Origin: a virus
Length of the DNA stretch: 64,000 bases
Virus record (IMG/VR): IMGVR_UViG_3300013308_000002
Location: 1-64,000 of that record
Reading direction: 5' to 3' (one strand)
In this document: in pieces, positions 1 to 18,039 of the stretch
How positions within the stretch are numbered: position 1 is the first letter of the stretch
Layout of the letters: every line of letters begins with the position of its first letter
Translations under genes and position numbers: made by a program
Notes under the pieces: model-generated
What the model was told of the DNA's origin: nothing
The model's input: the letters and a program-made list of their open reading frames with translations, nothing else
The model's database searches: none

Positions 1-95
1 TAGCGCCACCATACTCATCCGGGTATACTCGACCTCATCGACTACCAGCGGCCATTCAACGCCGACCATCAAACATAGCACGGACACAGATCACC

Positions 96-611
96 ATGAG
101 CGAAGAGTTTGACGAAAAGGAAATGCTAGCCACTCCACGAGACTTTGTGGACGAAAACTTTGCGTTGAATAATCAACCCATCTTCAACCAATATATTGCG
201 ATGAGAGTTCAAGGGTATGCTGGTGGCCGAGTCTTCCGCATTCTCTTTGGCGAGAAGTACGTTGGCGACAACTTGATGCAGGCGCGCATCTATGCTTTGG
301 AAAACAACCCGTACTACCGGCGCGAATTCCCGAAGGCTTTGGACAAGATCAAAATAGACGAACTCTGGAATCCCAAAGTTGCCGTCCATGAACTAATCTC
401 ACTCGTGCGCGATAACTTCGCCAAAGATAGTGCGCGGCTGTCTGCGATGAAAGAGCTCAATGTGATTACCAAGATCACCATCATTGACGAGTCTGGCAAT
501 ACCAAGCCAGGTCGCAGCTTGGACGACTTCTACGCTCAGGAGGGTGTCGAAAAGCCGGAAGACGTCGCGCCGGCCGAAATTACGCTGCCGGCATCGCCGA
601 CGACGCACTAA
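96..611 (+). CDS. hypothetical protein (171 aa)
   Basis: ATG-initiated ORF. It is followed by a GC hairpin plus T-run at 730-772. It is a lone plus-strand gene among minus-strand genes. Confidence 0.45.
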   Translation: MSEEFDEKEMLATPRDFVDENFALNNQPIFNQYIAMRVQGYAGGRVFRILFGEKYVGDNLMQARIYALENNPYYRREFPKALDKIKIDELWNPKVAVHELISLVRDNFAKDSARLSAMKELNVITKITIIDESGNTKPGRSLDDFYAQEGVEKPEDVAPAEITLPASPTTH

Positions 612-729
612 TAACATCGCAGGACATTGCGCTGGGTGGGTCTAGAGGCAAAGATGGGAAAGGATGCAGCCTAGGCGGGAACGAAGCGCCTAGGCCTATT
701 ACAGAAGGAAACCAGAAAGGGATGTTACG

Positions 730-772
730 AAGGCCGAGGCGCGCCAATTCAGGTGGCCTCGGCCTTTTGCTA
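730..772 (+). terminator. rho-independent terminator candidate
   Basis: Stem GGCCGAGGC...GCCTCGGCC followed by TTTTGCT. Confidence 0.45.
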
Positions 773-883
773 TCTGTGGATTGGGAGGCCATGGAGGGCC
801 AGCGAGACGGCCACGGCTATTGCAGCCGCGAGCATGACGACGGCCACAACACCAGCCAGGATGAGCGCTGTTTCGAACTTCAT
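770..883 (-). CDS. small hydrophobic peptide (about 37 aa)
   Basis: C-terminal part of ORF 770..958: MKFETALILAGVVAVVMLAAAIAVAVSLALHGLPIHR, a single predicted TM helix. Confidence 0.25.
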   Translation of the reverse strand: MKFETALILAGVVAVVMLAAAIAVAVSLALHGLPIHR

Positions 884-970
884 ACGCGCACCAACAAACA
901 TCCGACGATGCAGCCGGCAAAGAACGCGCAAGCAATGGCGCAAGTGATCTGGACCCACTCAAAGTACATA

Positions 971-1171
971 TCAAACTCCCATCGCCAGCCAGACGTCCAG
1001 TCGGTTGCGCAGTCTTGCCACGTCATCTTTGGAGAGCAGGACGCTGGTCTTCATTTTCTTGGAGCTCGCGATGACCATAGCGAACAACTCACCTTTGGAT
1101 TCGTCGACGGTTGGATAGACCGCCAGCACGTCGGTAGGCGTCACTTTGCAATTGTATTCTTGACGACTCAT
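971..1171 (-). CDS. hypothetical protein (66 aa)
   Basis: Internal ATG (MSRQEYNCKV...) of ORF 971..1453. The upstream part of that ORF is Arg/Pro-rich junk. Confidence 0.35.
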   Translation of the reverse strand: MSRQEYNCKVTPTDVLAVYPTVDESKGELFAMVIASSKKMKTSVLLSKDDVARLRNRLDVWLAMGV

Positions 1172-1173
1172 AT

Positions 1174-1383
1174 TCAAACTCCCATTGCGAACATTGTGAA
1201 GGTTGCGCCGAAGACCAAGGTCCAAGCGACATGGCTCAAGGTGATACGGCGATGGAGCGGGACCGGGCGCTTGAAGTCTGTCCGGACAACGGCCTTGGTG
1301 CGACGACGGGCCATAGCGTCTGACTCGCAAGCGTAACAGGCGCACGGAGCATCCCGGCCTTCGTACTTGTTTGGATCTCTCAT
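1174..1383 (-). CDS. hypothetical small protein (69 aa, Cys-containing, hydrophobic C-terminus)
   Basis: Internal ATG with AGGA Shine-Dalgarno (SD) sequence. Adjacent to the 971..1171 gene without overlap. Confidence 0.3.
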   Translation of the reverse strand: MRDPNKYEGRDAPCACYACESDAMARRRTKAVVRTDFKRPVPLHRRITLSHVAWTLVFGATFTMFAMGV

Positions 1384-1394
1384 GTTCGTTAGTC

Positions 1395-1544
1395 CTAGTG
1401 GAACCAGATGGCGTATACGGCAAACCCGATGGAGGCCCAACCAGTCGCTGCAACGGTAGCCACAGCTGCGATCCAGACGCCCAGAGGCATTTGAACGGAC
1501 TCGGTAAGGTGGACGACTTCTGCTAGCTGGCTGAGAGCGAACAT
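1395..1544 (-). CDS. small membrane protein (49 aa)
   Basis: ATG preceded by a GAGGAA SD. Product MFALSQLAEVVHLTESVQMPLGVWIAAVATVAATGWASIGFAVYAIWFH. Not in the ORF track because it is under 60 aa. Confidence 0.35.
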   Translation of the reverse strand: MFALSQLAEVVHLTESVQMPLGVWIAAVATVAATGWASIGFAVYAIWFH

Positions 1545-1601
1545 GGTTGGTTCCTCGGGTAGCGGACGCCCTTCTCAGAGCGCCCGGCGATTTGGGTTAG
1601 C

Positions 1602-2249
1602 TTACTCTTCCGAAGGGCCTTCGGTCAAGGCGAAGAGGTACGATTGGCCGTTGAATTCGAAGATGGCCTGGCCTTCCGCCTTCACCAGCATACGGAAGCG
1701 GATGTGCTTGGCATCTGGCAGGCCCAGCTCAGCGAAGGCGGTGCGAACCGATTTGAACTCGGCCGACTTGCCGTTCACGGTAACCATCACGCCGTTGCGA
1801 GTCATGCGCTTGGCTGCGACGCCATCATCCAACCACGAAGCTGCGATGGCCTGGCCCAGAGTCAGACCGGTCTTGGAGCCCTTGGACTCTTTCTTGCCGG
1901 CAGATGCAGCCTTCATCGCAGCCAGTTCGGCCAGCGCCATTTCCTCGGTGATCTCATTCTCCGGGACGTCGGCGTTAGGCGAGACGAACGACTCAACCAC
2001 TTCGCGGCTAGCACGTGTCTTGTGGACTACGACCGGAGCTACGTCAACCGGAGCGGATTCTGGCAGGTCGTCGTTATTCAACAGCGACTCTGTCAGAAGG
2101 GTTTCCAGGATGGCCTTCACACGACGCTCGGCGGTCTTGCGATCCGCGAACTTGGCGACTGGCTTGTCAACGTTGTGAGCGTTGTAGAAGGCAACCAGTT
2201 CTTTGGTGGTCGCTTCGGTCAAGGTGTCGAGGGTGATTTGAGTAGTCAT
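1602..2249 (-). CDS. hypothetical protein, paralog family A (215 aa)
   Basis: GGAG SD. N- and C-terminal blocks are clearly similar to ORF 7709..8152 (LVAFYN/LIAFYN; NGKSAEFKSVRTAF/NGKAEEFRSVRQAF). Confidence 0.7.
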   Translation of the reverse strand: MTTQITLDTLTEATTKELVAFYNAHNVDKPVAKFADRKTAERRVKAILETLLTESLLNNDDLPESAPVDVAPVVVHKTRASREVVESFVSPNADVPENEITEEMALAELAAMKAASAGKKESKGSKTGLTLGQAIAASWLDDGVAAKRMTRNGVMVTVNGKSAEFKSVRTAFAELGLPDAKHIRFRMLVKAEGQAIFEFNGQSYLFALTEGPSEE

Positions 2250-2261
2250 TCTATGTCGCTC

Positions 2262-2345
2262 CGTTCATTCTGGTTGGAAGAGGCCGTTTCCTCTTCCTTG
2301 ACGCCCATTATACGCTCATTAGAATGAGCGTCAACATTTATTTCG
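2262..2345 (-). promoter_or_regulatory. early promoter family member P0 (TTGACG-16-TATAAT) plus leader hairpin
   Basis: Minus strand reads AAATAGTTGCAAATAGTTCG..TTGACG CTCATTCTAATGAGCG TATAAT. There is a palindrome in the spacer and a GGAAGAGG/CCTCTTCC hairpin in the leader. Confidence 0.5.
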
Positions 2346-2357
2346 AACTATTTGCAA

Positions 2358-2525
2358 CTATTTCTGGGACAGTCGCATTTCCAATCGCGAGCGCGCATCT
2401 ACGGCCAGCGCCGATGAGCAGCGGTTGCACGTCACCTGGTGTCGGTAGATTGTTTGGCGACCGGTAGTCGCGCCGCACTTCATGGAGCCATCTGGCATCG
2501 CGTAGTGGACCGATGTGCGACTCAT
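2358..2525 (-). CDS. small Cys-rich (zinc-ribbon-like) protein (55 aa)
   Basis: The ATG overlaps the stop of the upstream gene (ATGA coupling). Contains KCG...TCNRC. Confidence 0.35.
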   Translation of the reverse strand: MSRTSVHYAMPDGSMKCGATTGRQTIYRHQVTCNRCSSALAVDARSRLEMRLSQK

Positions 2526-2830
2526 GGTTGGTCAACACGAGCTTTATGCGCGGCCATCGCGGCCTGAAGGCGAACGTCCGCAGCATCCCAAACAGCCTGG
2601 GCCGTCTCGGCGGTGATCGGTGCGAGCGGAGCCATGATTTCTTCTTTGGTAGAGCCAGGCGCCATCTGGCGGTTGAAGATCTGGGTGCGCGCTTCGTTGT
2701 AGCCGCGAGCAATCCAAGCGCCTTTGGGCGACTTACCAGCATCCGACTTGCCTTCGTTGTGGAGCGAAGCTTTGAGGTTGAAACCCTCCGCGACTTGCTT
2801 GGTTTGAAGTTTGGTCAGTTGGTAAGTCAT
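2522..2830 (-). CDS. hypothetical protein (102 aa)
   Basis: AGGAAG SD. Preceded by promoter P1. Confidence 0.65.
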   Translation of the reverse strand: MTYQLTKLQTKQVAEGFNLKASLHNEGKSDAGKSPKGAWIARGYNEARTQIFNRQMAPGSTKEEIMAPLAPITAETAQAVWDAADVRLQAAMAAHKARVDQP

Positions 2831-2831
2831 T

Positions 2832-2900
2832 TCGGCGCTTCCTAGTGTTGTTTCGTTTCGATAGAGTGATTATGACGCATTCAGATGAACACGTCAACAC
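2832..2900 (-). promoter_or_regulatory. early promoter family member P1 (TTGACG-17-CATAAT) with conserved leader ATCGAAACGAAAC
   Basis: Read on the minus strand upstream of the 2522..2830 gene. Confidence 0.55.
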
Positions 2901-2905
2901 TTATC

Positions 2906-3280
2906 TCAGCATTGCTGAGGATTATTCAAGAGGAAATCGGCCTTGGCGCTAGCGAACACGGTGATGGCGCTTTTGCGAATCTCGGTAGCGCGACGCTGCT
3001 CGTCGCGAGTGAGGTCGTTATAGCCGCTGGCTTGAAGGTACAACTCTTTGGCGTTGCGAGCAAATGCCATCTGCGCAGCCTCATACTCGACATCGATCAC
3101 TACGAAAGTCGAGGTGGTTCCGCGACTGCTGTGGTCTGCACAAACGAACTCAGCCTGGGCCAGAGTCATCGGCTCTACTGGGTAGGTGGTCCAGCTGCCG
3201 GTCGGATCGATCTTGCGGAATTTGCGACCGTCGTAGGTCATTTCGACGGTGAACTTGGTGCGAGTGGTGATTGCGTTCAT
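2906..3280 (-). CDS. hypothetical protein (124 aa)
   Basis: The second ATG has a GAGGAA SD. The first ATG of the ORF lies inside the conserved leader motif. Confidence 0.6.
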   Translation of the reverse strand: MNAITTRTKFTVEMTYDGRKFRKIDPTGSWTTYPVEPMTLAQAEFVCADHSSRGTTSTFVVIDVEYEAAQMAFARNAKELYLQASGYNDLTRDEQRRATEIRKSAITVFASAKADFLLNNPQQC

Positions 3281-3299
3281 TTCCGTATTCCTCAAATTT

Positions 3300-3380
3300 C
3301 GTTTCATTCATTTCGATAGGCTGATTATGCACCAGAAATGAGAACACGTAAACACCTTTCTCAAAGTATTTACGTGTTTG
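3300..3380 (-). promoter_or_regulatory. early promoter P2 with hairpin (ACACGTAAA-N16-TTTACGTGT) over the -35
   Basis: -35 TTTACG, -10 CATAAT. The stem-loop directly follows the stop of the small peptide gene. Confidence 0.5.
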
Positions 3381-3400
3381 GTGAGACGGCCGACGAACGG

Positions 3401-3499
3401 TCATTTGAAGCGGTCGATGAAGTCCCAGATCAGCCAGGCCAAGCAAACCAGGAAGATGACGACCACGAAGACCATCCCAATCAACGGCAGATAGTCCAC
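3401..3499 (-). CDS. small membrane peptide, paralog of 4329..4430 (about 32 aa)
   Basis: VDYLPLIGMVFVVVIFLVCLAWLIWDFIDRFK aligns with MILEIISYWPIIGIGLFAAGCVGLLLDLIKSFK. A GTG start would give 32 aa; the ATG alternative gives 24 aa. Confidence 0.4.
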   Translation of the reverse strand: MDYLPLIGMVFVVVIFLVCLAWLIWDFIDRFK

Positions 3500-3500
3500 G

Positions 3501-3707
3501 TCACACCTCCTTATGCGCGGCTGCGATGATCCGGGCCAACTCTTCGTAGCCTTCGCCAGCGCCAATAGCCTCACGCGCCCGGAGCGCCAACGTCTCGCAA
3601 CCGGACGCCTCATGGAGAGGGATCATCAGAGCCACGATGGCCTTCAACTCAACGATCTTGGCCTCCAGCTTCTTGACGTGGTTTCGAGTCAACTCGACAT
3701 TGTTCAT
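3501..3707 (-). CDS. hypothetical protein (68 aa)
   Basis: Internal ATG with SD. Alpha-helical sequence. Confidence 0.55.
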   Translation of the reverse strand: MNNVELTRNHVKKLEAKIVELKAIVALMIPLHEASGCETLALRAREAIGAGEGYEELARIIAAAHKEV

Positions 3708-3708
3708 G

Positions 3709-3933
3709 TCAGATAGCCTCATCTTGGATGACGGAAAGGAACATCATGATGGCCTTCGCCTTGTCGCCAGATGCACCCTGGGTGAAGGAGTTGCGCGCTA
3801 CGATGAACGTCCCGGAGCCGGTCAACTCGTAAAGGTACACGATGATTGGGCGTTCCTGGCCTTGGATGGACACGGCGACCTCGCCGATGACCTTGGCCTC
3901 TTCGCCTTTGAGATTCACAATATCGCCTTTCAT
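3709..3933 (-). CDS. hypothetical protein (74 aa)
   Basis: ORF with protein-like composition. Confidence 0.6.
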   Translation of the reverse strand: MKGDIVNLKGEEAKVIGEVAVSIQGQERPIIVYLYELTGSGTFIVARNSFTQGASGDKAKAIMMFLSVIQDEAI

Positions 3934-3959
3934 GGTTTGGTACTCCAGGTTGGGTTGGA

Positions 3960-4217
3960 TTATTCAGCAAGCGCCTTTCGGACCTTCAAGGCGATCGCGT
4001 CGACATCGGCGCTGTTCTCAAAACCGAATCCCATCTTGCCATCGGCGTAGATTTGGACTATGGACATTTTGAAGCGAGCGGACAGTTGCAGGGTGACGCC
4101 CTTGCCGAAGTCAATGGCCGCGTCCTGGACTGGCGAGCGCTCCGAAGAGGCGACTACTTTCAAGCCTTTGGATTCGAACTTGGTGACGAGCGCTTGGAGT
4201 TTAGTTTGCTTGGCCAT
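3960..4217 (-). CDS. hypothetical protein (85 aa)
   Basis: AGGAAG SD. Preceded by promoter P3. Confidence 0.6.
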   Translation of the reverse strand: MAKQTKLQALVTKFESKGLKVVASSERSPVQDAAIDFGKGVTLQLSARFKMSIVQIYADGKMGFGFENSADVDAIALKVRKALAE

Positions 4218-4224
4218 TTCGTTC

Positions 4225-4310
4225 TTCCTATCTGATGTTTCGATAGGCTGATTCTACGTCACGATGTGAAACGCGTCAACACCTTTCTCAAAGTAGTTGA
4301 CGCGTTTGGT
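4225..4310 (-). promoter_or_regulatory. early promoter P3 (TTGACG-17-TAGAAT) with hairpin AACGCGTCAAC-N15-GTTGACGCGTT
   Basis: Same architecture and same loop sequence as P2, but the stem sequence differs while remaining fully paired. Confidence 0.55.
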
Positions 4311-4328
4311 GAGACGACCGACGAACGG

Positions 4329-4430
4329 TCATTTGAACGACTTGATTAGGTCCAGTAGCAGACCGACGCACCCGGCCGCGAATAGGCCGATTCCGATGAT
4401 GGGCCAGTATGATATGATTTCTAGAATCAT
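4329..4430 (-). CDS. small membrane peptide (33 aa), paralog of 3401..3499
   Basis: ATGA overlap with the upstream stop. Its stop lies inside the conserved repeat. Confidence 0.45.
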   Translation of the reverse strand: MILEIISYWPIIGIGLFAAGCVGLLLDLIKSFK

Positions 4431-4654
4431 CGCGCAGCACACTTAATGAGCCACTCAATCCTGGCCGCTGCATCCCGGTGCCATTGCGCTCGCTTGGCGT
4501 AATGTTCGCTAGTACGTTTGTCGGCGCTCACTGCCTTGAACGAAGGCCCGTCCGTCTCCACGGCTCGTTTGGCATATGCCTCACAGGCCTCAGCACCTTT
4601 GGTATGGTGCGCGATCAGATCGAACGCCGATACTCCTTTGGCCTCTTCGATCAT
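4427..4654 (-). CDS. hypothetical protein (75 aa)
   Basis: Internal ATG MIEEAKG. Confidence 0.5.
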   Translation of the reverse strand: MIEEAKGVSAFDLIAHHTKGAEACEAYAKRAVETDGPSFKAVSADKRTSEHYAKRAQWHRDAAARIEWLIKCAAR

Positions 4655-4929
4655 CACGCCACCTTCCCAGGAGCAAACTGCCCGCACACCCTGGCGCGTT
4701 TCGCGGCCGTCTTGATAGCCGTCTCCTGGCGCTGCCTACACGAACATTCGTAGCATTGAAGCGCCCGACCTCGCGCAGCATTACGCAGGTAGTCTCGCGA
4801 CTTTATGTCTGTGCGACCGCAAGCGCAGCGAACCTGGAACGTCCGCTGGTCCGCACTTTGGCTTATTACCTTTGATCCGTTCTTGGCGAACCCTAGGTAA
4901 TTGACCGTCATTTTATTTGCCATCGTCAA
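4654..4929 (-). CDS. Cys-rich zinc-finger-like small protein
   Basis: CxC...CxxC pattern. Its stop overlaps the next start by 1 nt. Confidence 0.4.
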   Translation of the reverse strand: MTMANKMTVNYLGFAKNGSKVISQSADQRTFQVRCACGRTDIKSRDYLRNAARGRALQCYECSCRQRQETAIKTAAKRARVCGQFAPGKVA

Positions 4930-5563
4930 GATCCTTCATCATAAGCTCGTTTGGCGACATGAAAAGCTCGCGAACGGAAGCGACATTATCGATTGCTTTT
5001 GAGAATGGGACCGCAACCGGAATGCCGATGTACCGCTTGCTGATCCCCTCCTGCGCACGCACCAGCCTGGCGTAGTACTCCGACTCGGCGCGACGTAGCT
5101 CCAGCTCCAGCTCGTTGGCGGAAAGCTCAGGACCGGTGTTAGAGGCCGTCGGATCGAACGCTACGGTGATGCCGTCCATTCCTTCTATCGGCGAGTCGCC
5201 GGTGATATCGATTGATTGTATTTGGAGGCCGGAGATAAAGCCGAAGGCCGATGACGATCCAAGCTCAATCGCACGGAATGGCGAAATTTGAAGAGGTCGC
5301 GTAACGCAACGGCAGTTCAGAGACTGAAGGGACGGATCGAATGAGCCGCCACGAGCCTTGTCGATTTTCTTGCGTTTCTGGGTTACCAGAATGCTGCCTG
5401 CGCGCTTGCAACGCAACTTATCACTCTTCCCATCGGCGCGATTGATCGCATCCTGGATGATGCGCGGCACTCTATAGTTGCTGGAGCCGACTCGGTTGGC
5501 AGAGCGATTCCGGTGCATGGACCAGAACATATACCACGTTTCGCGAAGGTTCATTCCGTCCAC
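4913..5563 (-). CDS. hypothetical protein (216 aa)
   Basis: Long ORF with protein-like composition. Confidence 0.6.
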   Translation of the reverse strand: MDGMNLRETWYMFWSMHRNRSANRVGSSNYRVPRIIQDAINRADGKSDKLRCKRAGSILVTQKRKKIDKARGGSFDPSLQSLNCRCVTRPLQISPFRAIELGSSSAFGFISGLQIQSIDITGDSPIEGMDGITVAFDPTASNTGPELSANELELELRRAESEYYARLVRAQEGISKRYIGIPVAVPFSKAIDNVASVRELFMSPNELMMKDLDDGK

Positions 5564-5823
5564 CCATACCCTTTGGTTTCTTCATAGGACTTGCGCCACG
5601 AAGCGCGCCACCAGGCCCAGTTGATGGAGTGAAGTTTATACGGGTTGTCGTCAATCTTCAAGCCCAAAACTACGCAATCGTGACGACCTTGGCGCTTGGC
5701 ATTCGCCTGATCCAGAACTCGCGGCTGTTCACGGGCCAGAATCGGAGTGCCATCCTCGGCAAAGCCTTCAATTCGCTTTCCGTCGATTTCCATCCAGCAG
5801 CCTTCGGAGTTGATCTGGTTCAT
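5551..5823 (-). CDS. hypothetical protein (90 aa)
   Basis: ORF overlapping its neighbours by 4-13 nt. Confidence 0.55.
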   Translation of the reverse strand: MNQINSEGCWMEIDGKRIEGFAEDGTPILAREQPRVLDQANAKRQGRHDCVVLGLKIDDNPYKLHSINWAWWRASWRKSYEETKGYGWTE

Positions 5824-6161
5824 TTCGTGGCTCCAATGGTGACCGCATCGCCAAGCGTATCGCGTTCACGAACGGCCTTCACTTCGCCGCCGAAGACGTG
5901 CCAGACGAACGCACCGCCAGAAGTCTGGAAGGTTCCGATGTAGTTGTGCTCGCCAACGCCAGCCGTGTCCGGAATCTGATGGCCCGTTCCGACTACGTGG
6001 AACCCGTAATCCACCAGCGGCTGTGAGGTATCGATGAGCGCCCAGACCGATATGTTCTGGTTTGGCCCTTGGGTCTGGACGTCCAGGAATACGGCGCCTT
6101 TCGGAATCTTGATCACCGGATTATGCCCGACGTTCACGGCGTATTTGTAAATGGTTTTCAC
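5820..6161 (-). CDS. hypothetical protein, MKTIYKY tandem paralog 1 (113 aa)
   Basis: Clear similarity to the 6331..6630 gene (MKTIYKY..IPKG..FLDVQ.QGPN..WAL.DT..PLV). Confidence 0.65.
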   Translation of the reverse strand: MKTIYKYAVNVGHNPVIKIPKGAVFLDVQTQGPNQNISVWALIDTSQPLVDYGFHVVGTGHQIPDTAGVGEHNYIGTFQTSGGAFVWHVFGGEVKAVRERDTLGDAVTIGATK

Positions 6162-6334
6162 GATTTCACCTCATCCAAAGGAAGGTCAGCGAGTTGCTTC
6201 ATCAACCGAACATCGACGAAGACGGCGTTAGGCGATTTGTCACGGCAAACTTCGTTTGGCATGCCGCTGCGCTCGATGGCCGCTTTGAAGTTGGCGATAA
6301 TGGCCGCAGCTGCTTCAAGCTGTTTGGTTTTCAT
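6158..6334 (-). CDS. hypothetical small protein (58 aa)
   Basis: Internal ATG MKTKQLEAAAA. Sits between the two tandem paralogs. Confidence 0.5.
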   Translation of the reverse strand: MKTKQLEAAAAIIANFKAAIERSGMPNEVCRDKSPNAVFVDVRLMKQLADLPLDEVKS

Positions 6335-6630
6335 AGTGCCACCTCGATTTCCGGAGCGACATCGCCAACAAACACGTGCCAAACGAACAGACCACCTTCA
6401 GTTTGGAATGTACCAACGAACTGGTCACGGTAGATATCCGGAGACGTCACCTCATGGCCAGTGCCATAAACGCGGAACGTGACCTCAACCAAAGGACAGT
6501 TGGTATCGACCAACGCCCAGGCCACCACGTTTGGCCCTTGGATCTGGACGTCCAGAAACTTGAAACCTTTAGGTATCTGAAAAGGCGCGTTGCTGCGTGC
6601 GCCGACTTGGTACTTGTAGATGGTTTTCAT
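6331..6630 (-). CDS. hypothetical protein, MKTIYKY tandem paralog 2 (99 aa)
   Basis: Paralog of 5820..6161; start taken at an internal ATG. Confidence 0.65.
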   Translation of the reverse strand: MKTIYKYQVGARSNAPFQIPKGFKFLDVQIQGPNVVAWALVDTNCPLVEVTFRVYGTGHEVTSPDIYRDQFVGTFQTEGGLFVWHVFVGDVAPEIEVAL

Positions 6631-7067
6631 ATGACAGAGTCCTGTTCTTTGACGCGCAAAGCAAACTTGGCATCTGGGTATTTGCGGATGGTGATTTTGG
6701 TAAGCCATCGAAGGTCAGATGACTCGATTACGTCGTAGATTGCGCCACGCTCGGAGTCCCATTTGCCGCCAGCGACATCCGGACCGAAGTGGATCAGGTG
6801 ATGGATCTCAGCGCGATACCACCGGCGCGCCTGGAGTCCGTCCAGGCTGAGCATTTCGTTATAGAGCCACGTCACTTCAAACTCTGGAAACTCAAGAGGT
6901 CCAAACGGGATGACGTCATCCGGCGCTTTCGGAGCCACGACAGGCGCGGCCATCAACTTGGCGCAACCAGGGCAATCCACCGCGAGGAAAGCAATGGTGG
7001 CGTAGCCTTCGAACAGACCGCACAACGTGGCCTTCCCTGGTTGCTCGGATGGGGCGTGCTTTAACAT
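6627..7067 (-). CDS. hypothetical protein (146 aa)
   Basis: Internal ATG with GGAGG SD. The upstream part of the 256-aa ORF is Arg-rich junk. Confidence 0.6.
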   Translation of the reverse strand: MLKHAPSEQPGKATLCGLFEGYATIAFLAVDCPGCAKLMAAPVVAPKAPDDVIPFGPLEFPEFEVTWLYNEMLSLDGLQARRWYRAEIHHLIHFGPDVAGGKWDSERGAIYDVIESSDLRWLTKITIRKYPDAKFALRVKEQDSVI

Positions 7068-7069
7068 GA

Positions 7070-7321
7070 TTACTTTACCTCCGAGTTGATGTCGAAAGGA
7101 AGAACGATGGACAGAGGCAAGGTCTTTTTGATGTAGCGCTTCAAGTCTTTCAACTCGATGGACTCTGCCACGTCGTACATATCTTCGCTGATTACCACGC
7201 CGTCTTTCGAGGTAATACGATAGGTCAGAGCGCGGAAGCACTTGATCACTTTGCCAGGTTGCAGAGAGCTTTTGCGAGTGGCGTTTTCGATGGTTGTTTG
7301 GAATACGGTCACGGTGTTCAT
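7070..7321 (-). CDS. hypothetical protein (83 aa)
   Basis: Preceded by promoter P4. Confidence 0.6.
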   Translation of the reverse strand: MNTVTVFQTTIENATRKSSLQPGKVIKCFRALTYRITSKDGVVISEDMYDVAESIELKDLKRYIKKTLPLSIVLPFDINSEVK

Positions 7322-7324
7322 CTG

Positions 7325-7395
7325 TCATTCTCCAGAACGTTTCGTTTCGATGAGCCAATTCTATACCGGACTTAGCTGGCCGTCTACAACTATTC
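7325..7395 (-). promoter_or_regulatory. early promoter P4 (AATAGTTGTAGACGG-N-TATAGAAT) with leader GGCTCATCGAAACGAAACG
   Basis: Read on the minus strand. Confidence 0.55.
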
Positions 7396-7642
7396 ACAAA
7401 TCAATAGACACTACTGCCGCGATGAATAACGCCCGTGCAGCCTGGAGGTCGGTGGTCGAGTTGGTCGAGTTCTCAAACAGCTGGATGAACCCGTTGCGAA
7501 CGACGATGTACGCTACGACAGAGAATGCTGCGCTTTGGAGAAGCGTCACCATGTCAGGCTCGTCGCGCTTTCCGGCAATCTCGCACTCGGCCTTGATGAT
7601 GAACGTTGCGCCTTTGATCTTTACTATTTCGTTGACGGCCAT
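7394..7642 (-). CDS. hypothetical protein (82 aa)
   Basis: Internal ATG with GGAGAGG SD. Confidence 0.5.
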   Translation of the reverse strand: MAVNEIVKIKGATFIIKAECEIAGKRDEPDMVTLLQSAAFSVVAYIVVRNGFIQLFENSTNSTTDLQAARALFIAAVVSIDL

Positions 7643-7708
7643 GATGCCTCTCCAGATGTGAAGAAGCCCGGTGGACCAATACTCACCGGGCTTCGATTGG
7701 TCCAACTA

Positions 7709-8152
7709 TTAGTGCGACGACTGGCCGTCGTTGTGCTCGCTGATGAAGAATTTATATTCTACGTCTTGGAACTCGAATTTTGCTTTGCCCCAGAGCTTCA
7801 GCGCTCCACGGAACTTGATATGTTGCTGCAGCGGCAACTCCAGAGCGACGAAAGCTTGGCGGACTGACCGGAACTCTTCGGCCTTGCCGTTCCAGACCAC
7901 CATAACATTGTCTCGGGTGGCGCGGGCCTCGGCAACCAACGGATCTTTCCAAGTCTCGGCAACGGCCTTGGAGCGCACGATAGACTGGGTGACCTTTCCG
8001 TGGGTGATTTCGCCAAGGAGGGTGACGATGGTATCCTCAGCTACGGCTCGAGACTTGAAGCGTTTGATTGGGTCTTCCTTGTGATACTTGTTATAGAACG
8101 CAATCAGGTCTTTAGTTTCCATGCTTTTGACTTGCGCGAGAACCTTATTCAT
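7709..8152 (-). CDS. hypothetical protein, paralog family A (147 aa)
   Basis: Paralog of 1602..2249. Confidence 0.7.
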   Translation of the reverse strand: MNKVLAQVKSMETKDLIAFYNKYHKEDPIKRFKSRAVAEDTIVTLLGEITHGKVTQSIVRSKAVAETWKDPLVAEARATRDNVMVVWNGKAEEFRSVRQAFVALELPLQQHIKFRGALKLWGKAKFEFQDVEYKFFISEHNDGQSSH

Positions 8153-8225
8153 GATCTTCTACCTTCATTCTAGGGTTAGGTAAGCAGCGTTCTTGTCTGC
8201 TTACCTATAGAATAGTATTGGATAA

Positions 8226-8495
8226 TCAAATAAGCAAACTGCTATGGTGAGAAGTCGACGGACGGCAGTTTTCTTTAATGACTCTGCCTATTCTCAACAT
8301 CGGCAAATCCGGAGATCCTGACCAGGTTAGCGGAACGCCCGTATTGAGCTCTTTCAACTCCAGCTTGGCGAACTCGGCGCCGTCAAAGTTTACGAACACC
8401 GACTGCACGACTACTTCGACCGACTCCCCTTCGCGGCTCAACTCGATGATGTCCTGAACGTTGAGCCGACGTGCGATAACCAATTGCGCTTCCAT
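8226..8495 (-). CDS. hypothetical protein (89 aa)
   Basis: Preceded by promoter P6. Confidence 0.5.
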   Translation of the reverse strand: MEAQLVIARRLNVQDIIELSREGESVEVVVQSVFVNFDGAEFAKLELKELNTGVPLTWSGSPDLPMLRIGRVIKENCRPSTSHHSSLLI

Positions 8496-8560
8496 CCTTT
8501 GATCCCCATTCTAGTTATTTCGTTTGGCGATTATCGCCGGTTTCTTTTAGATTAGCAACG
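8496..8560 (-). promoter_or_regulatory. early promoter P6 (TTGCTA-17-GATAAT) with palindrome GGCGATAATCGCC over the -10
   Basis: Leader contains CAAACGAAA. Confidence 0.45.
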
Positions 8561-8582
8561 AATATACGTGTTATTCTGCTGA

Positions 8583-8621
8583 TATTTAAAAGAAAGCCCG
8601 AGGGATTAGGCTCGGGCTTTG
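8583..8621 (-). terminator. rho-independent terminator after the SPFH operon
   Basis: Stem AGCCCGAG/CTCGGGCT followed by TTTCTTTTAAA on the minus strand. Confidence 0.6.
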
Positions 8622-8647
8622 GTTCAAGCGGTGTTCGTAGGGCCTGC

Positions 8648-9493
8648 CTACTTGACGCTAACGAACGGAGTCGCAGAGCCAGGAATCATGGTCGTAGGCA
8701 GCTTGCCGTCCCAAGTTTCTACCTTGCGCAACTCCAGGTAGAGAGGGTTGGTTGCCATGGCCTGACCGACCAACGCGATTGCTTGGGCCTGTCCCTCTGC
8801 TCTGCTGATGGCCGCGTCTTTATCGCCTTTGGCTTGTTCGCGGACTTTATCGGCCTTCGCCGTTTCCTGGGCGACCTCGTTGACGAAGCGCGCCGTGGTC
8901 TGGTTGGCTTCGATCTTGGCGTTCAAAGCGGTGACTACCTTCTCCGGCAAACCGATCTTGCCATTCAGATAGATGTTCGTCACCACGAGTCCTTTCTTGG
9001 AGAACTCGTCACGCACCCTGGCCTCGACTTCCTTGAAGAACTGCTCTTTACCTTCACCATAAATCTTTTCGGCGGATAGCTTCGAAGATGCGTTATTCAA
9101 GGCAGTCTTCACGACTTGCGGCACGTTCGTACGAAGGATTTCGTCCATCGACTTGCGATAGGTCTGGAATAGTTCCGGAGCAGCACCATGCGCGGCCTTG
9201 ATCGTGATGCCGAGGTCCACGGTGATTTCCATGCCGTCCATATCCTGGAAGGCAATGACACCGAGGTTTTCATTCTGATCGAACGTCGGGAACTTATACA
9301 GTTCCTGGGATGGCGTGAGGAACTTCCAGCCGCTGCCTTCTTCGACCGGTTGGACGCCGGTGTCGGAGCCCATCATGTTGACGACAACGCCGGTGTATCC
9401 CATCGGGACGCGTTCGGCGCTGGTAAACAGACCGATGGCGATGATGAGGACTACGAAGAAGCCGATAAGCCGGCCGAGGGTGAGGTTAATCAT
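8648..9493 (-). CDS. SPFH/band-7 (prohibitin/HflK-like) domain membrane protein
   Basis: N-terminal TM segment, then a typical SPFH core followed by an Ala/Glu/Gln-rich coiled-coil tail (AEGQAQAIALVGQA). Confidence 0.85.
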   Translation of the reverse strand: MINLTLGRLIGFFVVLIIAIGLFTSAERVPMGYTGVVVNMMGSDTGVQPVEEGSGWKFLTPSQELYKFPTFDQNENLGVIAFQDMDGMEITVDLGITIKAAHGAAPELFQTYRKSMDEILRTNVPQVVKTALNNASSKLSAEKIYGEGKEQFFKEVEARVRDEFSKKGLVVTNIYLNGKIGLPEKVVTALNAKIEANQTTARFVNEVAQETAKADKVREQAKGDKDAAISRAEGQAQAIALVGQAMATNPLYLELRKVETWDGKLPTTMIPGSATPFVSVK

Positions 9494-9683
9494 TGTTACG
9501 ATCCTTCTTTGGGTTGGTGTTGAGAGTTTTGAACAGGCCTGCGATGGACAGGAACCAAACGAGTGTTACGGCCAGACCCATCGCGACTGCGACGTCATCC
9601 GGCTTATTCAGGAACGATGGAACGATGAATCGGATGGTGGTGGTAGAGAGGAATAGGACCAAAAGCCACATGAGAAGTTTCAC
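9486..9683 (-). CDS. small 2-TM membrane protein, translationally coupled to the SPFH gene
   Basis: Hydrophobic 65 aa. Overlaps the SPFH start by 8 nt and the upstream gene by 4 nt. Confidence 0.55.
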   Translation of the reverse strand: MKLLMWLLVLFLSTTTIRFIVPSFLNKPDDVAVAMGLAVTLVWFLSIAGLFKTLNTNPKKDRNND

Positions 9684-10156
9684 GCTTGCGACTCCAGATA
9701 GAGGTTGAATCGGTCGCTGCCAACGATACCCAGACTCTCCGGCGTGCCTTCGTTACGAACACCGCAAGCAGGGCAAAACCGATAGAGCTTGGTCCAGTTA
9801 CGTGGATCAGGATGAGGGCCTTGTTCGCGAACGACGATTTCAGCCATCGGCGCGGCCTGATCCTGATTCGTGCGCAACCAGCCGCGCCCGATTACGTGAT
9901 TGCACTCTACGTCGCAACCTAACACCGCGTCAGCGAGTTCCGCTCCCAACTTAACCGCCAGGACGGCTCCGGACGACGCTCCAGCAGCGGTGGCTACGCT
10001 CAACAGGAGGTCTACGGCCTTCTTGTGCCAGCCGATCTTGTTGGTGCAATGGTCGGCGCGGTCCTGCTTATCAGGAGTGGTCGACTTCGCCAGGATCTTG
10101 GTGTACTTGCCGATGTCGCGTTCATGCTGATTTACGAGTTCGTTGATATCCATCAT
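9680..10156 (-). CDS. hypothetical protein (158 aa, CxxC-containing)
   Basis: Translationally coupled within the SPFH operon. Confidence 0.6.
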   Translation of the reverse strand: MMDINELVNQHERDIGKYTKILAKSTTPDKQDRADHCTNKIGWHKKAVDLLLSVATAAGASSGAVLAVKLGAELADAVLGCDVECNHVIGRGWLRTNQDQAAPMAEIVVREQGPHPDPRNWTKLYRFCPACGVRNEGTPESLGIVGSDRFNLYLESQA

Positions 10157-10467
10157 TCGCCATCCAGAGTCATTACGACTTTGACATATTCGATTCGGTC
10201 AGATTTATCCGCCACGAACACGCGGCCGGTCTGCAGGTTGATGATCCAGACGGCTTCGTTGAGGGCCTTTTTGACACCTTCGGAGATTTCTGGCAGCATG
10301 TTCTTGATGGCCTGGTAACCAGACGTTTCAACGCGCATGCAGATGGCGCCGTCACGACGGAAAGTGACGCCAAGGCTGGTTTCGTCCAGCGTCGGTCGGT
10401 TATCTTTGCCAGCGCCAATCTTGAAAGTGATAGCGGACGGTTTGGCGTACACTCTGATCTTATCCAT
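10153..10467 (-). CDS. hypothetical protein (104 aa)
   Basis: Coupled ORF. Confidence 0.6.
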   Translation of the reverse strand: MDKIRVYAKPSAITFKIGAGKDNRPTLDETSLGVTFRRDGAICMRVETSGYQAIKNMLPEISEGVKKALNEAVWIINLQTGRVFVADKSDRIEYVKVVMTLDGE

Positions 10468-10470
10468 TAC

Positions 10471-10716
10471 TTACGCCTCGATGAAGAAAAGTTGAGTTGG
10501 AACGGGCGTTTGGCCGTCCACTACGATTGCAGCCTCGTATCGCCATTTGATCGAGCTGCCGTTCACCAGCCACAACTCGCCATTTGGATCCACGTTAAAG
10601 ACCTGGCCGCGCTTGAACTTGCCACCGGTGTTCGGGCAGAAGTAAGGCGCCAGAAGCGATACGCGAGCGCGGTCGCCAGCCTCACGAGCCGACGACATCA
10701 GTTGATCCCAGGTCAT
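10471..10716 (-). CDS. hypothetical protein (81 aa)
   Basis: ORF with protein-like composition. Confidence 0.55.
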   Translation of the reverse strand: MTWDQLMSSAREAGDRARVSLLAPYFCPNTGGKFKRGQVFNVDPNGELWLVNGSSIKWRYEAAIVVDGQTPVPTQLFFIEA

Positions 10717-10952
10717 TTGAAGCCTTCCGGCAGATCGATTACTTTGGTGAAGTAGCCCTTGCGAGCTTGCTGATCGATGATGCCGCCCATGCTCTTCTTA
10801 TCGAACACGCACGACTCATTGAACTTGAGGATTCGCGCCTCATCCTTACAGTCGCCACCTTCCAGAAGGCAGAAGCCAGGACCGGCGATGTGGGCGACGT
10901 AGCGAGGGCCTTGGATATTCGCGGCCCGTACTTCAATTACTTTAAACGACAT
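10713..10952 (-). CDS. hypothetical protein (79 aa)
   Basis: Overlaps the downstream gene by 4 nt. Confidence 0.55.
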   Translation of the reverse strand: MSFKVIEVRAANIQGPRYVAHIAGPGFCLLEGGDCKDEARILKFNESCVFDKKSMGGIIDQQARKGYFTKVIDLPEGFK

Positions 10953-11035
10953 TTCAGTGAACCTTTCACTATCTATCAGGAAAGGTGATTCTACTTGAGG
11001 TCAGAATCACCGTCTACAACTATTTAGGCAAAGGT
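10953..11035 (-). promoter_or_regulatory. early promoter P7 (AAATAGTTGTAGACGG-17-TAGAAT) with palindrome GGTGATTCT..AGAATCACC spanning the -10
   Basis: Read on the minus strand. Confidence 0.5.
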
Positions 11036-11269
11036 GTAATCGCCAGTCAGATACCAACGGCCGTTAGAGAGCAAGCGGGCTGCTTGGTTAGCGTAACCGC
11101 CAGAGACGAACGTGGCCAGGCCGGTGTTCGTGTTGACGTTGGTTAGGCCGAACACGGAAAGGTGCGATACGCCAGCGATTTTTCGAGTCATAGTCTCAAG
11201 ACCTTTGAGTTGGTCCAGAGTGATCCTGAAACGCTTGGTATTCATGAGGCTTACGAATCGAGCTTCCAT
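11024..11269 (-). CDS. hypothetical protein (81 aa)
   Basis: The last minus-strand gene before the divergent region. Confidence 0.55.
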   Translation of the reverse strand: MEARFVSLMNTKRFRITLDQLKGLETMTRKIAGVSHLSVFGLTNVNTNTGLATFVSGGYANQAARLLSNGRWYLTGDYTFA

Positions 11270-11360
11270 TCCGATGTCTCTTTCTTGGTTGGTGTGACGA
11301 TATCTTAAGGAAGTCTCAAACCGATGGCAACTTTTATTTCACATTTCTGAATATTTCCGC

Positions 11361-11627
11361 TTGGAGAACTTCCGCCATCGACCGTGGTCGTACCTCTATA
11401 CACCTAGCACGCACGCGGAGCTTGACATGGCTAAGCTTGAAGGGATAAAGGACGATGGTCGCCTATATAGAGTCGTGCGCCACGACAGCTCTTATATTGA
11501 CTTTGTTTGCGTAATACCGGTTGCGCCAGGGGCAAAGCCGGAGAGGTTTAGAGGCGACCCAAGGGATTATGAAAGCCCGATTGATTTCGTATCACAGGCG
11601 ATGCCTATGGATGTGCAGGCGCTGTAG
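11361..11627 (+). CDS. hypothetical protein; position is compatible with a small terminase subunit
   Basis: Non-ATG (TTG) start in the track; an internal ATG (MAKLEG) is also possible. Immediately upstream of TerL. Confidence 0.4.
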   Translation: MENFRHRPWSYLYTPSTHAELDMAKLEGIKDDGRLYRVVRHDSSYIDFVCVIPVAPGAKPERFRGDPRDYESPIDFVSQAMPMDVQAL

Positions 11628-11671
11628 ATCTGACGGTAGCGCTCCATATATACTCCGACCATACTTAATGT

Positions 11672-13072: not shown

Positions 13073-13082
13073 CGAACAAAGA

Positions 13083-13110
13083 AAAGCCCCAATCAAGGGG
13101 CTTTCAAGTC
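13083..13110 (+). terminator. rho-independent terminator after terL
   Basis: Stem AGCCCC-AATCAA-GGGGCT followed by a T-containing tail. Confidence 0.6.
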
Positions 13111-13304
13111 TCTCTGGCGGCATCTTATACGGCCAGACTACGTTCGCAGGCTCCAATGGCAGGTTGCATTGCAGAGTGCTGGGCTTGGACAGGCCCGAAC
13201 GCAAGTTGCTGGACACCAGCGTCAATGTGTAGGCTATCGGCTTAATCCCCATTGCAGGGCGCTCACGAACGCGCTAGCCTGGCTATTATATCGCAAATAG
13301 CACC

Positions 13305-13336
13305 CAATAAAAAGCCCTCGACATGGAGGTCTTTTT
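13305..13336. terminator. bidirectional terminator-like hairpin flanked by an A-run and a T-run
   Basis: Sequence AAAAAGCCCTCGACATGGAGGTCTTTTTATT; the stem is imperfect. Confidence 0.35.
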
Positions 13337-13352
13337 ATTCACCTGCCGAGGT

Positions 13353-13712
13353 CTAGATTTTGTCTTGGAATTCCTTCGGCATTACCTCTGCAGAATCCAA
13401 GGCTTGGACGCGTTGGATCTCAGCATTCAAGATGTCGGCGCGGACGATGTAGGCGTTGTTTGGATCTTTCAAATCCGCAGACCAACCAGCGTCGGCTTGG
13501 AGGCCGAGGTCGGAAATTGCCTTGTCCCAGAGCACGGCAGCTTCGGAATCGAGCGCCATGGTAGCGTTGGTGCCGTGAGCGATGGCCGCTTCAATGGCCG
13601 CATTCAGCGTTTTCGCGATGGCCTCTTTCTTCTTGTTGAGAAGGGCCAGATTGAACGCTGTCTTTGGGTCAAGCTTGGCGGAGGTCGGAAGTTTGGAAAC
13701 GTCGATGTGCAT
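13353..13712 (-). CDS. hypothetical protein (119 aa)
   Basis: Internal ATG with AAAGGAA SD. Confidence 0.55.
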   Translation of the reverse strand: MHIDVSKLPTSAKLDPKTAFNLALLNKKKEAIAKTLNAAIEAAIAHGTNATMALDSEAAVLWDKAISDLGLQADAGWSADLKDPNNAYIVRADILNAEIQRVQALDSAEVMPKEFQDKI

Positions 13713-13726
13713 GGTATTCCTTTCGG

Positions 13727-14865: not shown

Positions 14866-14869
14866 TCTG

Positions 14870-14945
14870 TGTACCTTTCTGGTCGTTTCGTTTGGATGGC
14901 CTATACTAGCGCCATCCAATTTGGAAGTCTACAGCTATTTACGCT
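14870..14945 (-). promoter_or_regulatory. early promoter P8 (AAATAGCTGTAGACT-17-TAGTAT) with palindrome GGATGGC..GCCATCC around the -10
   Basis: Leader contains CCAAACGAAACG. Confidence 0.5.
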
Positions 14946-15316: not shown

Positions 15317-15319
15317 TTC

Positions 15320-15395
15320 ATTCTTCCTTTCTGGCTTTGGTTAAGATGGGATAATATTAATCCCATCTGATTTGGAAGTCTACAACTATCTCACC
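15320..15395 (-). promoter_or_regulatory. early promoter P9 (GATAGTTGTAGACT-17-TAATAT) with palindrome GATGGGAT..ATCCCATC around the -10
   Basis: Read on the minus strand. Confidence 0.5.
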
Positions 15396-17824: not shown

Positions 17825-17839
17825 ATCAATCCACCGGAG

Positions 17840-18037: not shown

Positions 18038-18039
18038 TA

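Follow-up and report, generated by a model that had tools for sequence, protein, structure and literature searches.

Stem-loops overlying the early promoters of a PB1-like myophage: probable promoter/stem-loop cassettes of the PeSL kind

The subject of this study is a set of stem-loops with variable arms that lie over the early promoters of IMG/VR virus record IMGVR_UViG_3300013308_000002, of which positions 1 to 64,000 were analysed (hereafter the window). These elements are probably composite promoter/stem-loop cassettes of the kind known from T4-type phages as promoter-early stem-loops (PeSLs), here in a PB1-like (Pbunavirus-related) myophage. An earlier note on the window, made from the letters alone, had proposed that selection acts on pairing rather than on sequence and that this points to RNA structures in read-through transcripts; this reading proved right in outline and is partly supported by the analysis presented here.

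The window is a 64-kilobase (kb) stretch of a myophage genome with a G+C content of 53%. Its major capsid protein shares 71-73% identity with the counterparts in Pbunavirus (PB1-like phages of Pseudomonas aeruginosa) and in Luteibacter phage Pluto, and the genome is organised in the PB1-like manner; a nucleotide search of phage genomes matched the structural genes only (73-82%) and returned no near match to the early region. The latter is a block of small minus-strand genes, roughly at 700-18500, and all elements are read on the minus strand. It forms a chain of small ORFan genes with intergenic gaps of ~80-100 base pairs (bp), each of which must accommodate the upstream gene's stop codon, a host promoter of the sigma70 type, a start region that is conserved (CATCGAAAC...) and the ribosome-binding site. 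Promoter-like sites number 19 in 1-18500, where 10.7 were expected; 15 curated promoters share -35, -10 and start motifs, and the promoters of the early region form direct-repeat families. Relatives were collected by terminase-anchored searches of IMG/VR and metagenomes, which yielded a single close relative, L024 (87% terminase identity), and none nearer, in addition to L106 (77%), Pbunavirus loci (75%), L029 (74%) and others (60-68%).

P2, P3 and the mapped terminator T004 of phage 14-1

The stem-loops over the -35 elements of promoters P2 and P3 and their surroundings comprise the following features (nt, nucleotides; aa, amino acids).

3343-3378, minus strand: P2 stem-loop, perfect 10-bp arms with the -35 element in the 3' arm; -19.4 kcal/mol, z = -6.0
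3343-3378, minus strand: the P2 stem as RNA, 16 bp AACACGUAAAUACUUU / AAGGUGUUUACGUGUU with two G·U pairs and a GAGA tetraloop, then CUCAUUUCU
3324-3352, minus strand: P2 promoter, TTTACG-N17-CATAAT, then CAGCCTATCGAAA
4269-4307, minus strand: P3 stem-loop, 12-bp perfect outer stem with the -35 element TTGACG in the 3' arm; -22.1 kcal/mol, z = -6.2
4251-4279, minus strand: P3 promoter, TTGACG-N17-TAGAAT
3401-3499, minus strand: small membrane-peptide gene, 32 aa, GTG start, ending in RFK and stop
4329-4430, minus strand: paralogous membrane-peptide gene, 33 aa, ending in SFK and stop
3390-3400, minus strand: conserved 11-mer CCGTTCGTCGG, directly 3' of the stop codon and upstream of the P2 stem; second copy at 4318-4328
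L024:2161 (one base shorter), L106:1566/3218/6178, L028:4267/9950, L030:9345/9936: the 11-mer CCGTTCGTCGG in relatives

Hairpins with perfect arms were indeed present at both promoters, as the earlier note had claimed. Their supposedly identical loop, TACTTTGAGAAAGGTG, is not a loop, since G·U pairs extend the stem to 16-17 bp and a GAGA tetraloop closes it, in P3 by way of an inner stem of 5 bp with one G·U pair and one bulged U. Most of TACTTTGAGAAAGGTG belongs to a promoter-upstream motif found throughout the family, GAAATAA(A/G)TG-TTGAC, and a search of IMG/VR with this 16-nt sequence gave 23 matches, all of them due to chance and none with flanking arms. The hairpins were also said to contain the stop codon region of a membrane-peptide gene; the stops, at 3403-3401 and 4331-4329, actually lie about 22-23 nt upstream of them. 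In a simple terminator scan P2 was flagged with 16 pairs and the tail CTCATTTCTG.

Transcript ends of the Pbunavirus phage 14-1 have been mapped by ONT-cappable-seq (Putzeys et al., PMC10914365; Tables S3/S4 of bioRxiv 10.1101/2023.10.13.562163). In these data the 3' end of terminator T004, which ARNold predicts to be intrinsic, maps to 6661 on the U tract that follows AACGGUAGUGC-GAAA-GUGCUACCGUU, and the start site of promoter P009 is at 6637, 24 nt downstream of the T004 end (bioRxiv 10.1101/2023.10.13.562163). The sequence of T004 reads ...AACGGTAGTGC-GAAA-GTGCTACCGTTTT, then CCATTTCTGGCGTATAGTCAACCCA, then TCGAAAC. Alignment of 14-1, L028 (another Pbunavirus), L024 and window P2 revealed that the spacer (TTTCCATTTCTGGCG in 14-1, CTCATTTCTGGTG in the window), the -10 element and the start motif CATCGAAAC are conserved, whereas the stems are unrelated, as seen by comparing AACGGUAGUGC/GUGCUACCGUU of T004 with AACACGUAAAUACUUU/AAGGUGUUUACGUGUU of P2. 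The apex of the stem is formed by GAAA or GAGA in every aligned copy, and in 14-1 as well as in the window the -35 region is overlain by a GNRA-capped stem, with a U-rich spacer after it. In contrast to P009, P2 and P3 possess better -35 elements (TTTACG, TTGACG), and the 11-mer is oppositely oriented, being present in reverse (CCGACGAACGG) beside T004. Judged by their sequence, P2 and P3 are homologues of a mapped terminator overlapping a mapped promoter and, given that overlap, would be terminator-promoter composites. The overlap of T004 and P009 is not discussed as a composite element in the 14-1 paper (PMC10914365); a second 14-1 terminator, T011, ends 37 nt upstream of where transcription from promoter P034 starts (bioRxiv 10.1101/2023.10.13.562163). 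From the homology we infer that the 16-17 bp stem of P2 and P3, with its G·U pairs, GNRA tetraloop and subsequent U-rich spacer, would serve in the window phage as a factor-independent terminator or attenuator of the upstream transcription unit, and that its 3' arm would double as the -35 element.

The orthologue of P2/P3 in the close relative (L024:2069-2171) is 82-84% identical, while the flanking open reading frames (ORFs) had no tblastn match. Its stem is AAACGCGUUAAUACUU-UGAAAU-AAGUGUUGACGCGUUU, then UUUUCAUUUCU, with the tail TTTTCATTTCT, and it has a U·G pair at a position occupied by C-G in P3 and A-U in P2. When P2, P3 and the L024 copy were aligned, 96% of the cells paired as compared to 35-57% in slid controls, with two double-sided changes. 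The covariation between P2 and P3 reported earlier is real but thin; two pairs are changed on both sides, and one position is an indel.

Both modules are immediately preceded by one of two paralogous genes for single-helix membrane peptides of 32-33 aa; in L024 an unrelated gene takes the place of these genes. P2 and P3 form a direct repeat of ~100 bp at a distance of 927 bp and bracket a four-gene cassette, an arrangement that could support mini-circle excision in the style of PeSLs. The 11-mer CCGTTCGTCGG, often positioned right after a TGA stop, occurs ~25-45 nt upstream of the -35 element at many early promoters of the family and may be a protein-binding site. An antisense promoter built on the palindromic -35 element of P3 was considered and rejected, the plus strand having no usable -10 element at the right distance.

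Stems at the other early promoters

Further stems, several of them outside the series of promoters in the earlier note, are listed below.

2298-2334, minus strand: nested stems over promoter TTGACG-N16-TATAAT; z = -4.2
2873-2896, minus strand: spacer stem UGACGUGUUC-AUCU-GAAUGCGUCA of promoter 2869-2897, two of its 10 bp being G·U, located between -35 and -10; z = -3.9
2905-2919, minus strand: 7-bp stem CTCAGCA-a-TGCTGAG, just past the upstream gene's stop codon, with 8 nt left to the -35 element of promoter 2869-2897
8177-8207, minus strand: 11-bp stem TAGGTAAGCAG-N9-CTGCTTACCTA, also written (TA)GGTAAGCAG-N9-CTGCTTACC(TA), between two genes; z = -6.0
8526-8538, minus strand: P6 mini-palindrome GGCGATAATCGCC (GGCGAT-A-ATCGCC), centred on the -10 element GATAAT of promoter 8530-8558
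10984-11011, minus strand: P7 stem GGTGATTCT-N10-AGAATCACC, with the -10 element of promoter TAGACG-N17-TAGAAT (10988-11016) in the 3' arm; z = -3.6
14892-14919, minus strand: P8 stem TTGGATGGC-gctagtatag-GCCATCCAA, also written (TT)GGATGGC-N10-GCCATCC(AA); z = -4.2
15344-15368, minus strand: P9 stem AGATGGGAT-taatatt-ATCCCATCT, also written (A)GATGGGAT-N7-ATCCCATC(T); z = -4.2

All palindromes quoted in the earlier note were recovered on the minus strand, and its list could be extended by the stems at 2298-2334, 2873-2896 and 2905-2919, which it had missed. Each of the P2, P3 and P6-P9 palindromes overlaps a sigma70-like promoter. The palindromes of P6-P9 and of the 8177-8207 region had all been described as straddling the -10 hexamer. 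This applies to P6, P8 and P9, but not to P7, whose arms run from the end of the -35 element to the -10 element itself so that the stem is centred on the spacer, and not to 8177-8207, where the loop (ACAAGAACG) lacks a -10 element and the best conserved promoter, TTGCTT-N17-TATTCT, is located just upstream of the stem. Relative to the promoter, stems are thus found upstream (2905-2919), over the -35 element (P2, P3), in the spacer (2873-2896, P7), over the -10 element (P6, P8, P9, 2298-2334) and downstream (8177-8207). Since placement varies in this manner and registers shift by one base between paralogues, it is the stem itself that is conserved rather than a fixed promoter geometry.

Stems of this kind are enriched at the early promoters. 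A perfect Watson-Crick stem of at least 9 bp was present in 7/15 early-promoter regions, whereas among background windows of 85 nt taken across the sequence the share was 2.2% (binomial p = 1.5e-8), and RNA-fold z-scores of the promoter stems against dinucleotide shuffles ranged from -3.1 to -6.2. The longest perfect stem was chosen as measure in place of a plain comparison of minimum free energies between promoter regions and genomic windows, which did not discriminate (p = 0.89) because coding DNA is richer in G+C. No match at gathering thresholds was obtained in Rfam for 1-18600.

The comparison with related phages suggested in the earlier note did reveal stems that stay paired while their sequence changes, namely in orthologues of P7, P8, 8177-8207 and 2873-2896. 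For P7, the stem is GGCGATTCT / AGAATCGCC in L024, which has a compensatory change, and GACGCGATT / AATCGCGTC in L029. A MAFFT alignment of the P7 orthologues was set aside as it misaligned L029; anchored by hand on the promoter, the L029 stem turned out to be shifted by one base in register, and positional homology of its pairs is therefore lacking. P8 holds its -10 element TAGTAT (14903-14908) in the loop, with the -35 element TAGACT at 14926-14931, and its orthologue in L024 is TTCAGATG-N14-CATCTGAA. Likewise, the -10 element TAATAT of P9 (15354-15359) is in the loop, with TAGACT at 15377-15382 as -35 element; P8 and P9 are paralogues with 81% identity over 36 nt whose stem registers are one base apart. 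A G:C to A:T exchange compensated on both sides distinguishes the orthologue of 8177-8207 in L024 (TTAGATAAGCAG / CTGCTTATCTAA), and inner pairs differ in that of 2873-2896 (TGACGCATCT-ttga-AGGTGCGTCA). In the nested structure at 2298-2334 an outer stem, TTGACGCTCATT / AATGGGCGTCAA with one G·U pair, encloses the -10 element, while an alternative inner stem, ACGCTCATT-ct-AATGAGCGT, is placed in the spacer; the L024 orthologue keeps TTGACGCCCA / TGGGCGTCAA. P6 is the weakest case, with five RNA pairs and -7.1 kcal/mol, a value equalled by 6/200 shuffles. In L024 the palindrome has not been kept, and ATCGCT-N11-AGCGAT surrounds the -35 element instead; a canonical terminator is located upstream of P6 at 8593-8620.

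Among more distant relatives, L106 carries two cassettes in which unrelated 13-bp arms enclose the -35 element behind the same CCGTTCGTCGG motif. Pbunavirus loci exhibit a -10-centred palindrome of 10-14 bp, TCGATGAGATGACT-gaggtat-AGTCATCTCATCGA, and in the Pbunavirus P049 family an A-T to G-C exchange is represented together with both its G·T and its A·C intermediate. Orthologues in L024, L029 and L106 and paralogues in Pbunavirus therefore keep the stem with different arms, sometimes with the register shifted by one base, in agreement with the proposal that pairing and not arm sequence is selected.

The early promoters share a conserved start region, C(A/T)ATCGAAAC(GAAAC), after each -10 element (e.g. 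2856-2868, 3311-3320, 4238-4247, 7340-7352), which is common to the window, L024, L029, tabernarius-like loci and Pbunavirus and may be an element of the 5' untranslated region (5'-UTR) for translation or stability. A second type of early promoter has the upstream block (A)ATAG(T/C)TGTAGAC(G/T) instead of TTGAC, with the first bases of the -35 element at 7386, 11016, 14931 and 15382 on the minus strand and the upstream gene's stop codon embedded in the block. In phage 14-1 promoters of this type correspond to the mapped start sites P041 and P043, P041 being a promoter of the P7 type (bioRxiv 10.1101/2023.10.13.562163).

Some further structures were noticed beside these promoters, all on the minus strand. 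A 5'-UTR stem, GGAAGAGG-aaacgg-CCTCTTCC, follows the promoter at 2334 (2276-2297), and ACCTTTC-N12-GAAAGGT at 10961-10986 lies over the ribosome-binding site that follows P7 and shares three bases with the P7 stem; in L024 neither of the two has been conserved. At 13306-13339 there is a canonical terminator, AATAAAAAG...CTTTTTATT with an inner CCTC/GAGG stem, whose T tract forms the -35 region of the next promoter (TATAAT at ~13285). A terminator T tract that doubles as -35 region also exists in L024 (11619-11650) and L029 (9460-9490).

RNA structures weighed against other explanations

According to the explanation we favour, the stem, which about half of the early intergenic gaps encode, is most likely an RNA structure in transcripts entering from an upstream promoter. 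It would be laid over the next promoter because intergenic space is short, one arm being a promoter element (-35, spacer, -10 or start site) and the other arm evolving to stay complementary to it. The strand on which wobble pairs occur bears on this, as G·T is tolerated only in the sense RNA, A·C corresponds to G·U in the antisense RNA, and both are mismatches in a DNA cruciform. In the promoter stems of the family G·T and A·C were observed at a ratio of 14:4 after removal of duplicates (p = 0.034; composition-corrected expectation 52%), an excess that mildly favours sense-strand RNA over DNA cruciforms. Fold energies are also lower for the sense strand, with -23.7 versus -15.2 kcal/mol in the P2 region and -24.0 versus -14.4 kcal/mol for the L024 copy, and the GNRA-type apex of the -35 class is an RNA-type feature. 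The evidence from strand asymmetry is modest, that is, supportive and not conclusive.

The claim of RNA-level structures in read-through transcripts is well supported for the -35 class, by P2/P3 and their homology to T004, but unproven for the -10-centred stems. The start site of TCGAAAC-type promoters in 14-1 is the T of TCGAAAC (bioRxiv 10.1101/2023.10.13.562163), so a promoter's own transcript holds at most the last few bases of a -10-centred stem. Tails resembling a U tract were sought after the P6-P9 stems and were not found; the sequences there are AAACGAAAT for P6, TTTCCTGAT for P7 (marginal), ACGAAACGA for P8 and TAACCAAAG for P9. The stems of P6-P9, 2298-2334 and 2873-2896 are probably attenuators, pause sites or hairpins protecting 3' ends, and not classical terminators.

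Several observations weigh against the explanation as a whole or against parts of it. The covariation rests on few sequences, and the statistics are thin because L024 is the sole close relative found; in a three-sequence shuffle control, 56/500 shuffles matched the covariation score of P2/P3/L024. A broad test of sense versus antisense fold energy on 55 loosely predicted promoters was not significant (p = 0.15), and the wobble count under strict extension, 4:0, is too small (p = 0.125). P3 has a poor U tract (tail CACAUCG) and was not flagged by the simple terminator scan, which passes P2 only, and the -10-centred stems run into A-rich sequence (AAACGAAAC) and not into a U tract. The internal promoters at 7386, 16385 and 18095 lack a strong stem. 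In phage 14-1, start sites were mapped at the palindrome-bearing promoters P010, P041 and P049 (bioRxiv 10.1101/2023.10.13.562163), and 0/14 mapped termination sites coincide with them. Moreover, the 14-1 transcription unit TU055 reads through P049, whose palindrome copy is degraded, with three imperfections. Given the absence of 14-1 3' ends at the corresponding promoters and the read-through of TU055, a role of the -10-centred stems in termination or processing is something we infer.

The same stems invite an explanation in terms of RNA processing or stability only, in which they would be landmarks for RNase III or RNase E, or barriers to 3' exonucleases, at which long early transcripts are cut into stable monocistronic pieces. 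The missing U tract of the -10-centred stems would fit, as would the 3' end of 14-1 T001, which lies four bases past a hairpin without U tract (bioRxiv 10.1101/2023.10.13.562163), and the A-rich, unstructured sequence past the stems, which may resemble a target of RNase E. However, stems of 9-12 bp are short for RNase III, T004 has the anatomy of an intrinsic terminator (hairpin and U tract) and is predicted as such by ARNold, and a PeSL stem-loop lowered lacZ read-through like a strong terminator. We therefore regard processing alone as unlikely.

Still less likely is a switch at the DNA level, in which the palindromes extrude as cruciforms in supercoiled phage DNA. Extrusion would either expose the -10 element in single-stranded form, aiding open complex formation, or break the -35/-10 geometry and thereby silence the promoter, and early promoters would then be sensitive to supercoiling and to upstream transcription. 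P8, P9 and several relatives do hold the -10 hexamer exactly in the loop between perfect arms of 8-14 bp, and these stems have no U tract and no mapped 3' end at their 14-1 counterparts. Yet many stems depend on G·T pairs, which would be mismatches in a cruciform, and the 14:4 ratio points the same way, as do the GNRA-type apex tetranucleotides of the -35 class. Extrusion is further disfavoured by loops of 7-16 nt and AT-poor centres. Finally, the stems range in position from upstream of the -35 to downstream of the -10 element and shift register between paralogues, so no fixed relation to the -10 element is conserved. The cruciform alternative left open in the earlier note is thus disfavoured by G·U-containing stems, conserved tetraloops and wobble ratio alike. 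We give an equally low probability to the variant in which the -10-centred and spacer-centred palindromes are a DNA-level device, be it a supercoiling-dependent cruciform or hairpin or a structure-specific target of a phage early protein that times shut-off; if this were true, sigma70 promoters would be regulated by their own secondary structure.

Binding of a dimeric phage or host protein to the palindromes as operators, e.g. to a GATG-N13-15-CATC core on the -10 element, for early shut-off at the switch to middle expression, appears very improbable. GATG and CATC do recur at similar spacing in P8, P9, the L024 orthologue of P8 and the Pbunavirus P049 family, and the 11-mer CCGTTCGTCGG found upstream of many early promoters suggests the existence of some protein-binding sites in these regions. 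However, CATC is the conserved start-site motif, which is present also in palindrome-free promoters, so GATG follows from pairing alone; complementarity spans 9-14 bp of non-conserved sequence, and no core is common to P7, P2/P3, 2298-2334 and the other stems. A Pfam scan of ten early proteins, most of which had no match, yielded no recognisable repressor. The argument against one sequence-specific repressor made at the outset is borne out, the arms having no consensus beyond the start-site motif CATC.

We find it marginally harder still to believe that the stems are a functionless by-product of template-switch "quasipalindrome correction" or of recombination between promoter cassettes, with no selection on pairing. 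The cassettes are repeated and recombinogenic, and intrastrand template switching is an established mutational mechanism that creates perfect arms or double changes in one step. On the other hand, phages whose terminases are 63-87% identical repeatedly have stems at orthologous promoters, built from unrelated arms and in shifted registers. The stems are ~20-fold commoner at promoters than elsewhere in the genome, their wobble pairs are biased to the sense strand, and one of the homologues has been mapped as a terminator.

Phage N4 virion RNA polymerase promoters are hairpins with 5-7-bp stems, 3-nt loops and specific conserved bases, which are read by a phage RNA polymerase. They share with the present elements the inverted repeats at early promoters and the notion that structure might matter over arm sequence, but the window stems have 9-17 bp and loops of 4-16 nt and overlie -35/-10 elements, which in the relative 14-1 are used by the host's sigma70 enzyme; promoters of the N4 type were rejected on these dimensions and on the ordinary -35/-10 elements.

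Likeness to promoter-early stem-loops and significance

PeSLs are repeated sigma70-like early promoters with variable stem-loops, described in the T4-type phages RB49, phi1, PST/T4 and nt-1/KVP40 (Arbiol et al. 2010, PMC2839356; Comeau et al. 2014, PMC4122927). They lie in hyperplastic ORFan regions and fall into five classes, with the stem upstream of -35, over -35, between -35 and -10, over -10 or just downstream of -10, of which positions between the boxes or over -10 are the commonest; G-T pairs occur in the stems (PMC2839356, PMC4122927). In a lacZ fusion one PeSL stem-loop cut read-through as strongly as rrnB T1, and the cassettes were argued to mediate gene shuffling (PMC2839356, PMC4122927).

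The window elements match this description in their repeated sigma70-like early promoters in short gaps between small ORFan genes, with a stop codon before and a ribosome-binding site after, in the variable stem-loop occupying all five positions, in the G-T pairs, and in forming conserved islands beside genes that are non-homologous in close relatives. They differ in host lineage, a PB1-like myophage of 64-70 kb and 53% G+C as opposed to the T4-type myoviruses in which PeSLs were defined, which is a difference of lineage and not of mechanism. In addition, the window stems are not polyG/polyC, there is a second -35 type (ATAGTTGTAGAC), and the extra 11-mer CCGTTCGTCGG precedes some cassettes. 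P2 and its L024 orthologue also resemble canonical intrinsic terminators, in having a stable hairpin with GNRA-type apex and a U-rich stretch after it, but the window stems are AU-rich (4/16 G-C pairs in P2), the U tract of P3 is poor and the -10-centred stems have none.

Between 2200 and 7700, the window resembles L024 at the nucleotide level largely within the promoter modules alone, and for many of the flanking ORFs tblastn returned no match. In this pattern the repeated cassettes would be conserved junctions for the exchange of ORFan genes between related phages.

Other genes of the early block were noted in passing. The large terminase gene (11672-13072) is on the plus strand within the minus-strand block, a layout shared by relatives, and is flanked by a terminator at 13083-13104 and an early promoter at 11302-11330. 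Two minus-strand genes, 1602-2249 and 7709-8152, encode proteins with a common N-terminal segment (TKELVAFYNAHN / TKDLIAFYNKYH), the product of the former also matching the L024 orthologue of the latter in tblastn; they look like paralogous early genes of unassigned function. An SPFH/Band 7 domain protein is encoded at 8648-9493 on the minus strand (E = 9e-23; 74% identity in L024). The minus-strand gene 15396-16316 specifies a 306-aa early protein that combines a zinc finger of the CXXCXGXG type with DUF6011 at the C-terminus. Anti-TRAP, the DnaJ zinc domain and antiterminator Q were hit below threshold in each case, which is not taken as evidence; the protein might conceivably interact with nucleic acid or RNA polymerase.

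The promoter/stem-loop design as such is already known from PeSLs of T4-type phages, a precedent that the earlier note had not recognised, and for P2/P3 a homologue has been mapped in 14-1. The novelty lies in the occurrence of the design throughout the PB1-like group and in the natural covarying series for the -10-centred class; a literature search found no description of PeSL-like elements in PB1-like phages, and an earlier genome paper on this group went no further than AT-rich boxes and conserved intergenic motifs for which it gave no explanation.

Such motifs, left unexplained in earlier genome papers on PB1-like phages, are now accounted for. The PeSL design, i.e. promoter and stem-loop in one cassette of ~100 bp, is extended to the PB1-like/Pbunavirus group, which includes therapeutic Pseudomonas phages. 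Better annotation of promoters and terminators in PB1-like phages may be expected, as well as compact promoter-terminator parts. The natural covarying series provides ready-made mutants for asking how -10 stems without U tract act, a question that also concerns the PeSLs of T4-type phages. The recurrence of the design suggests a convergent or widespread solution for insulating tandem early promoters and shuffling ORFan genes.

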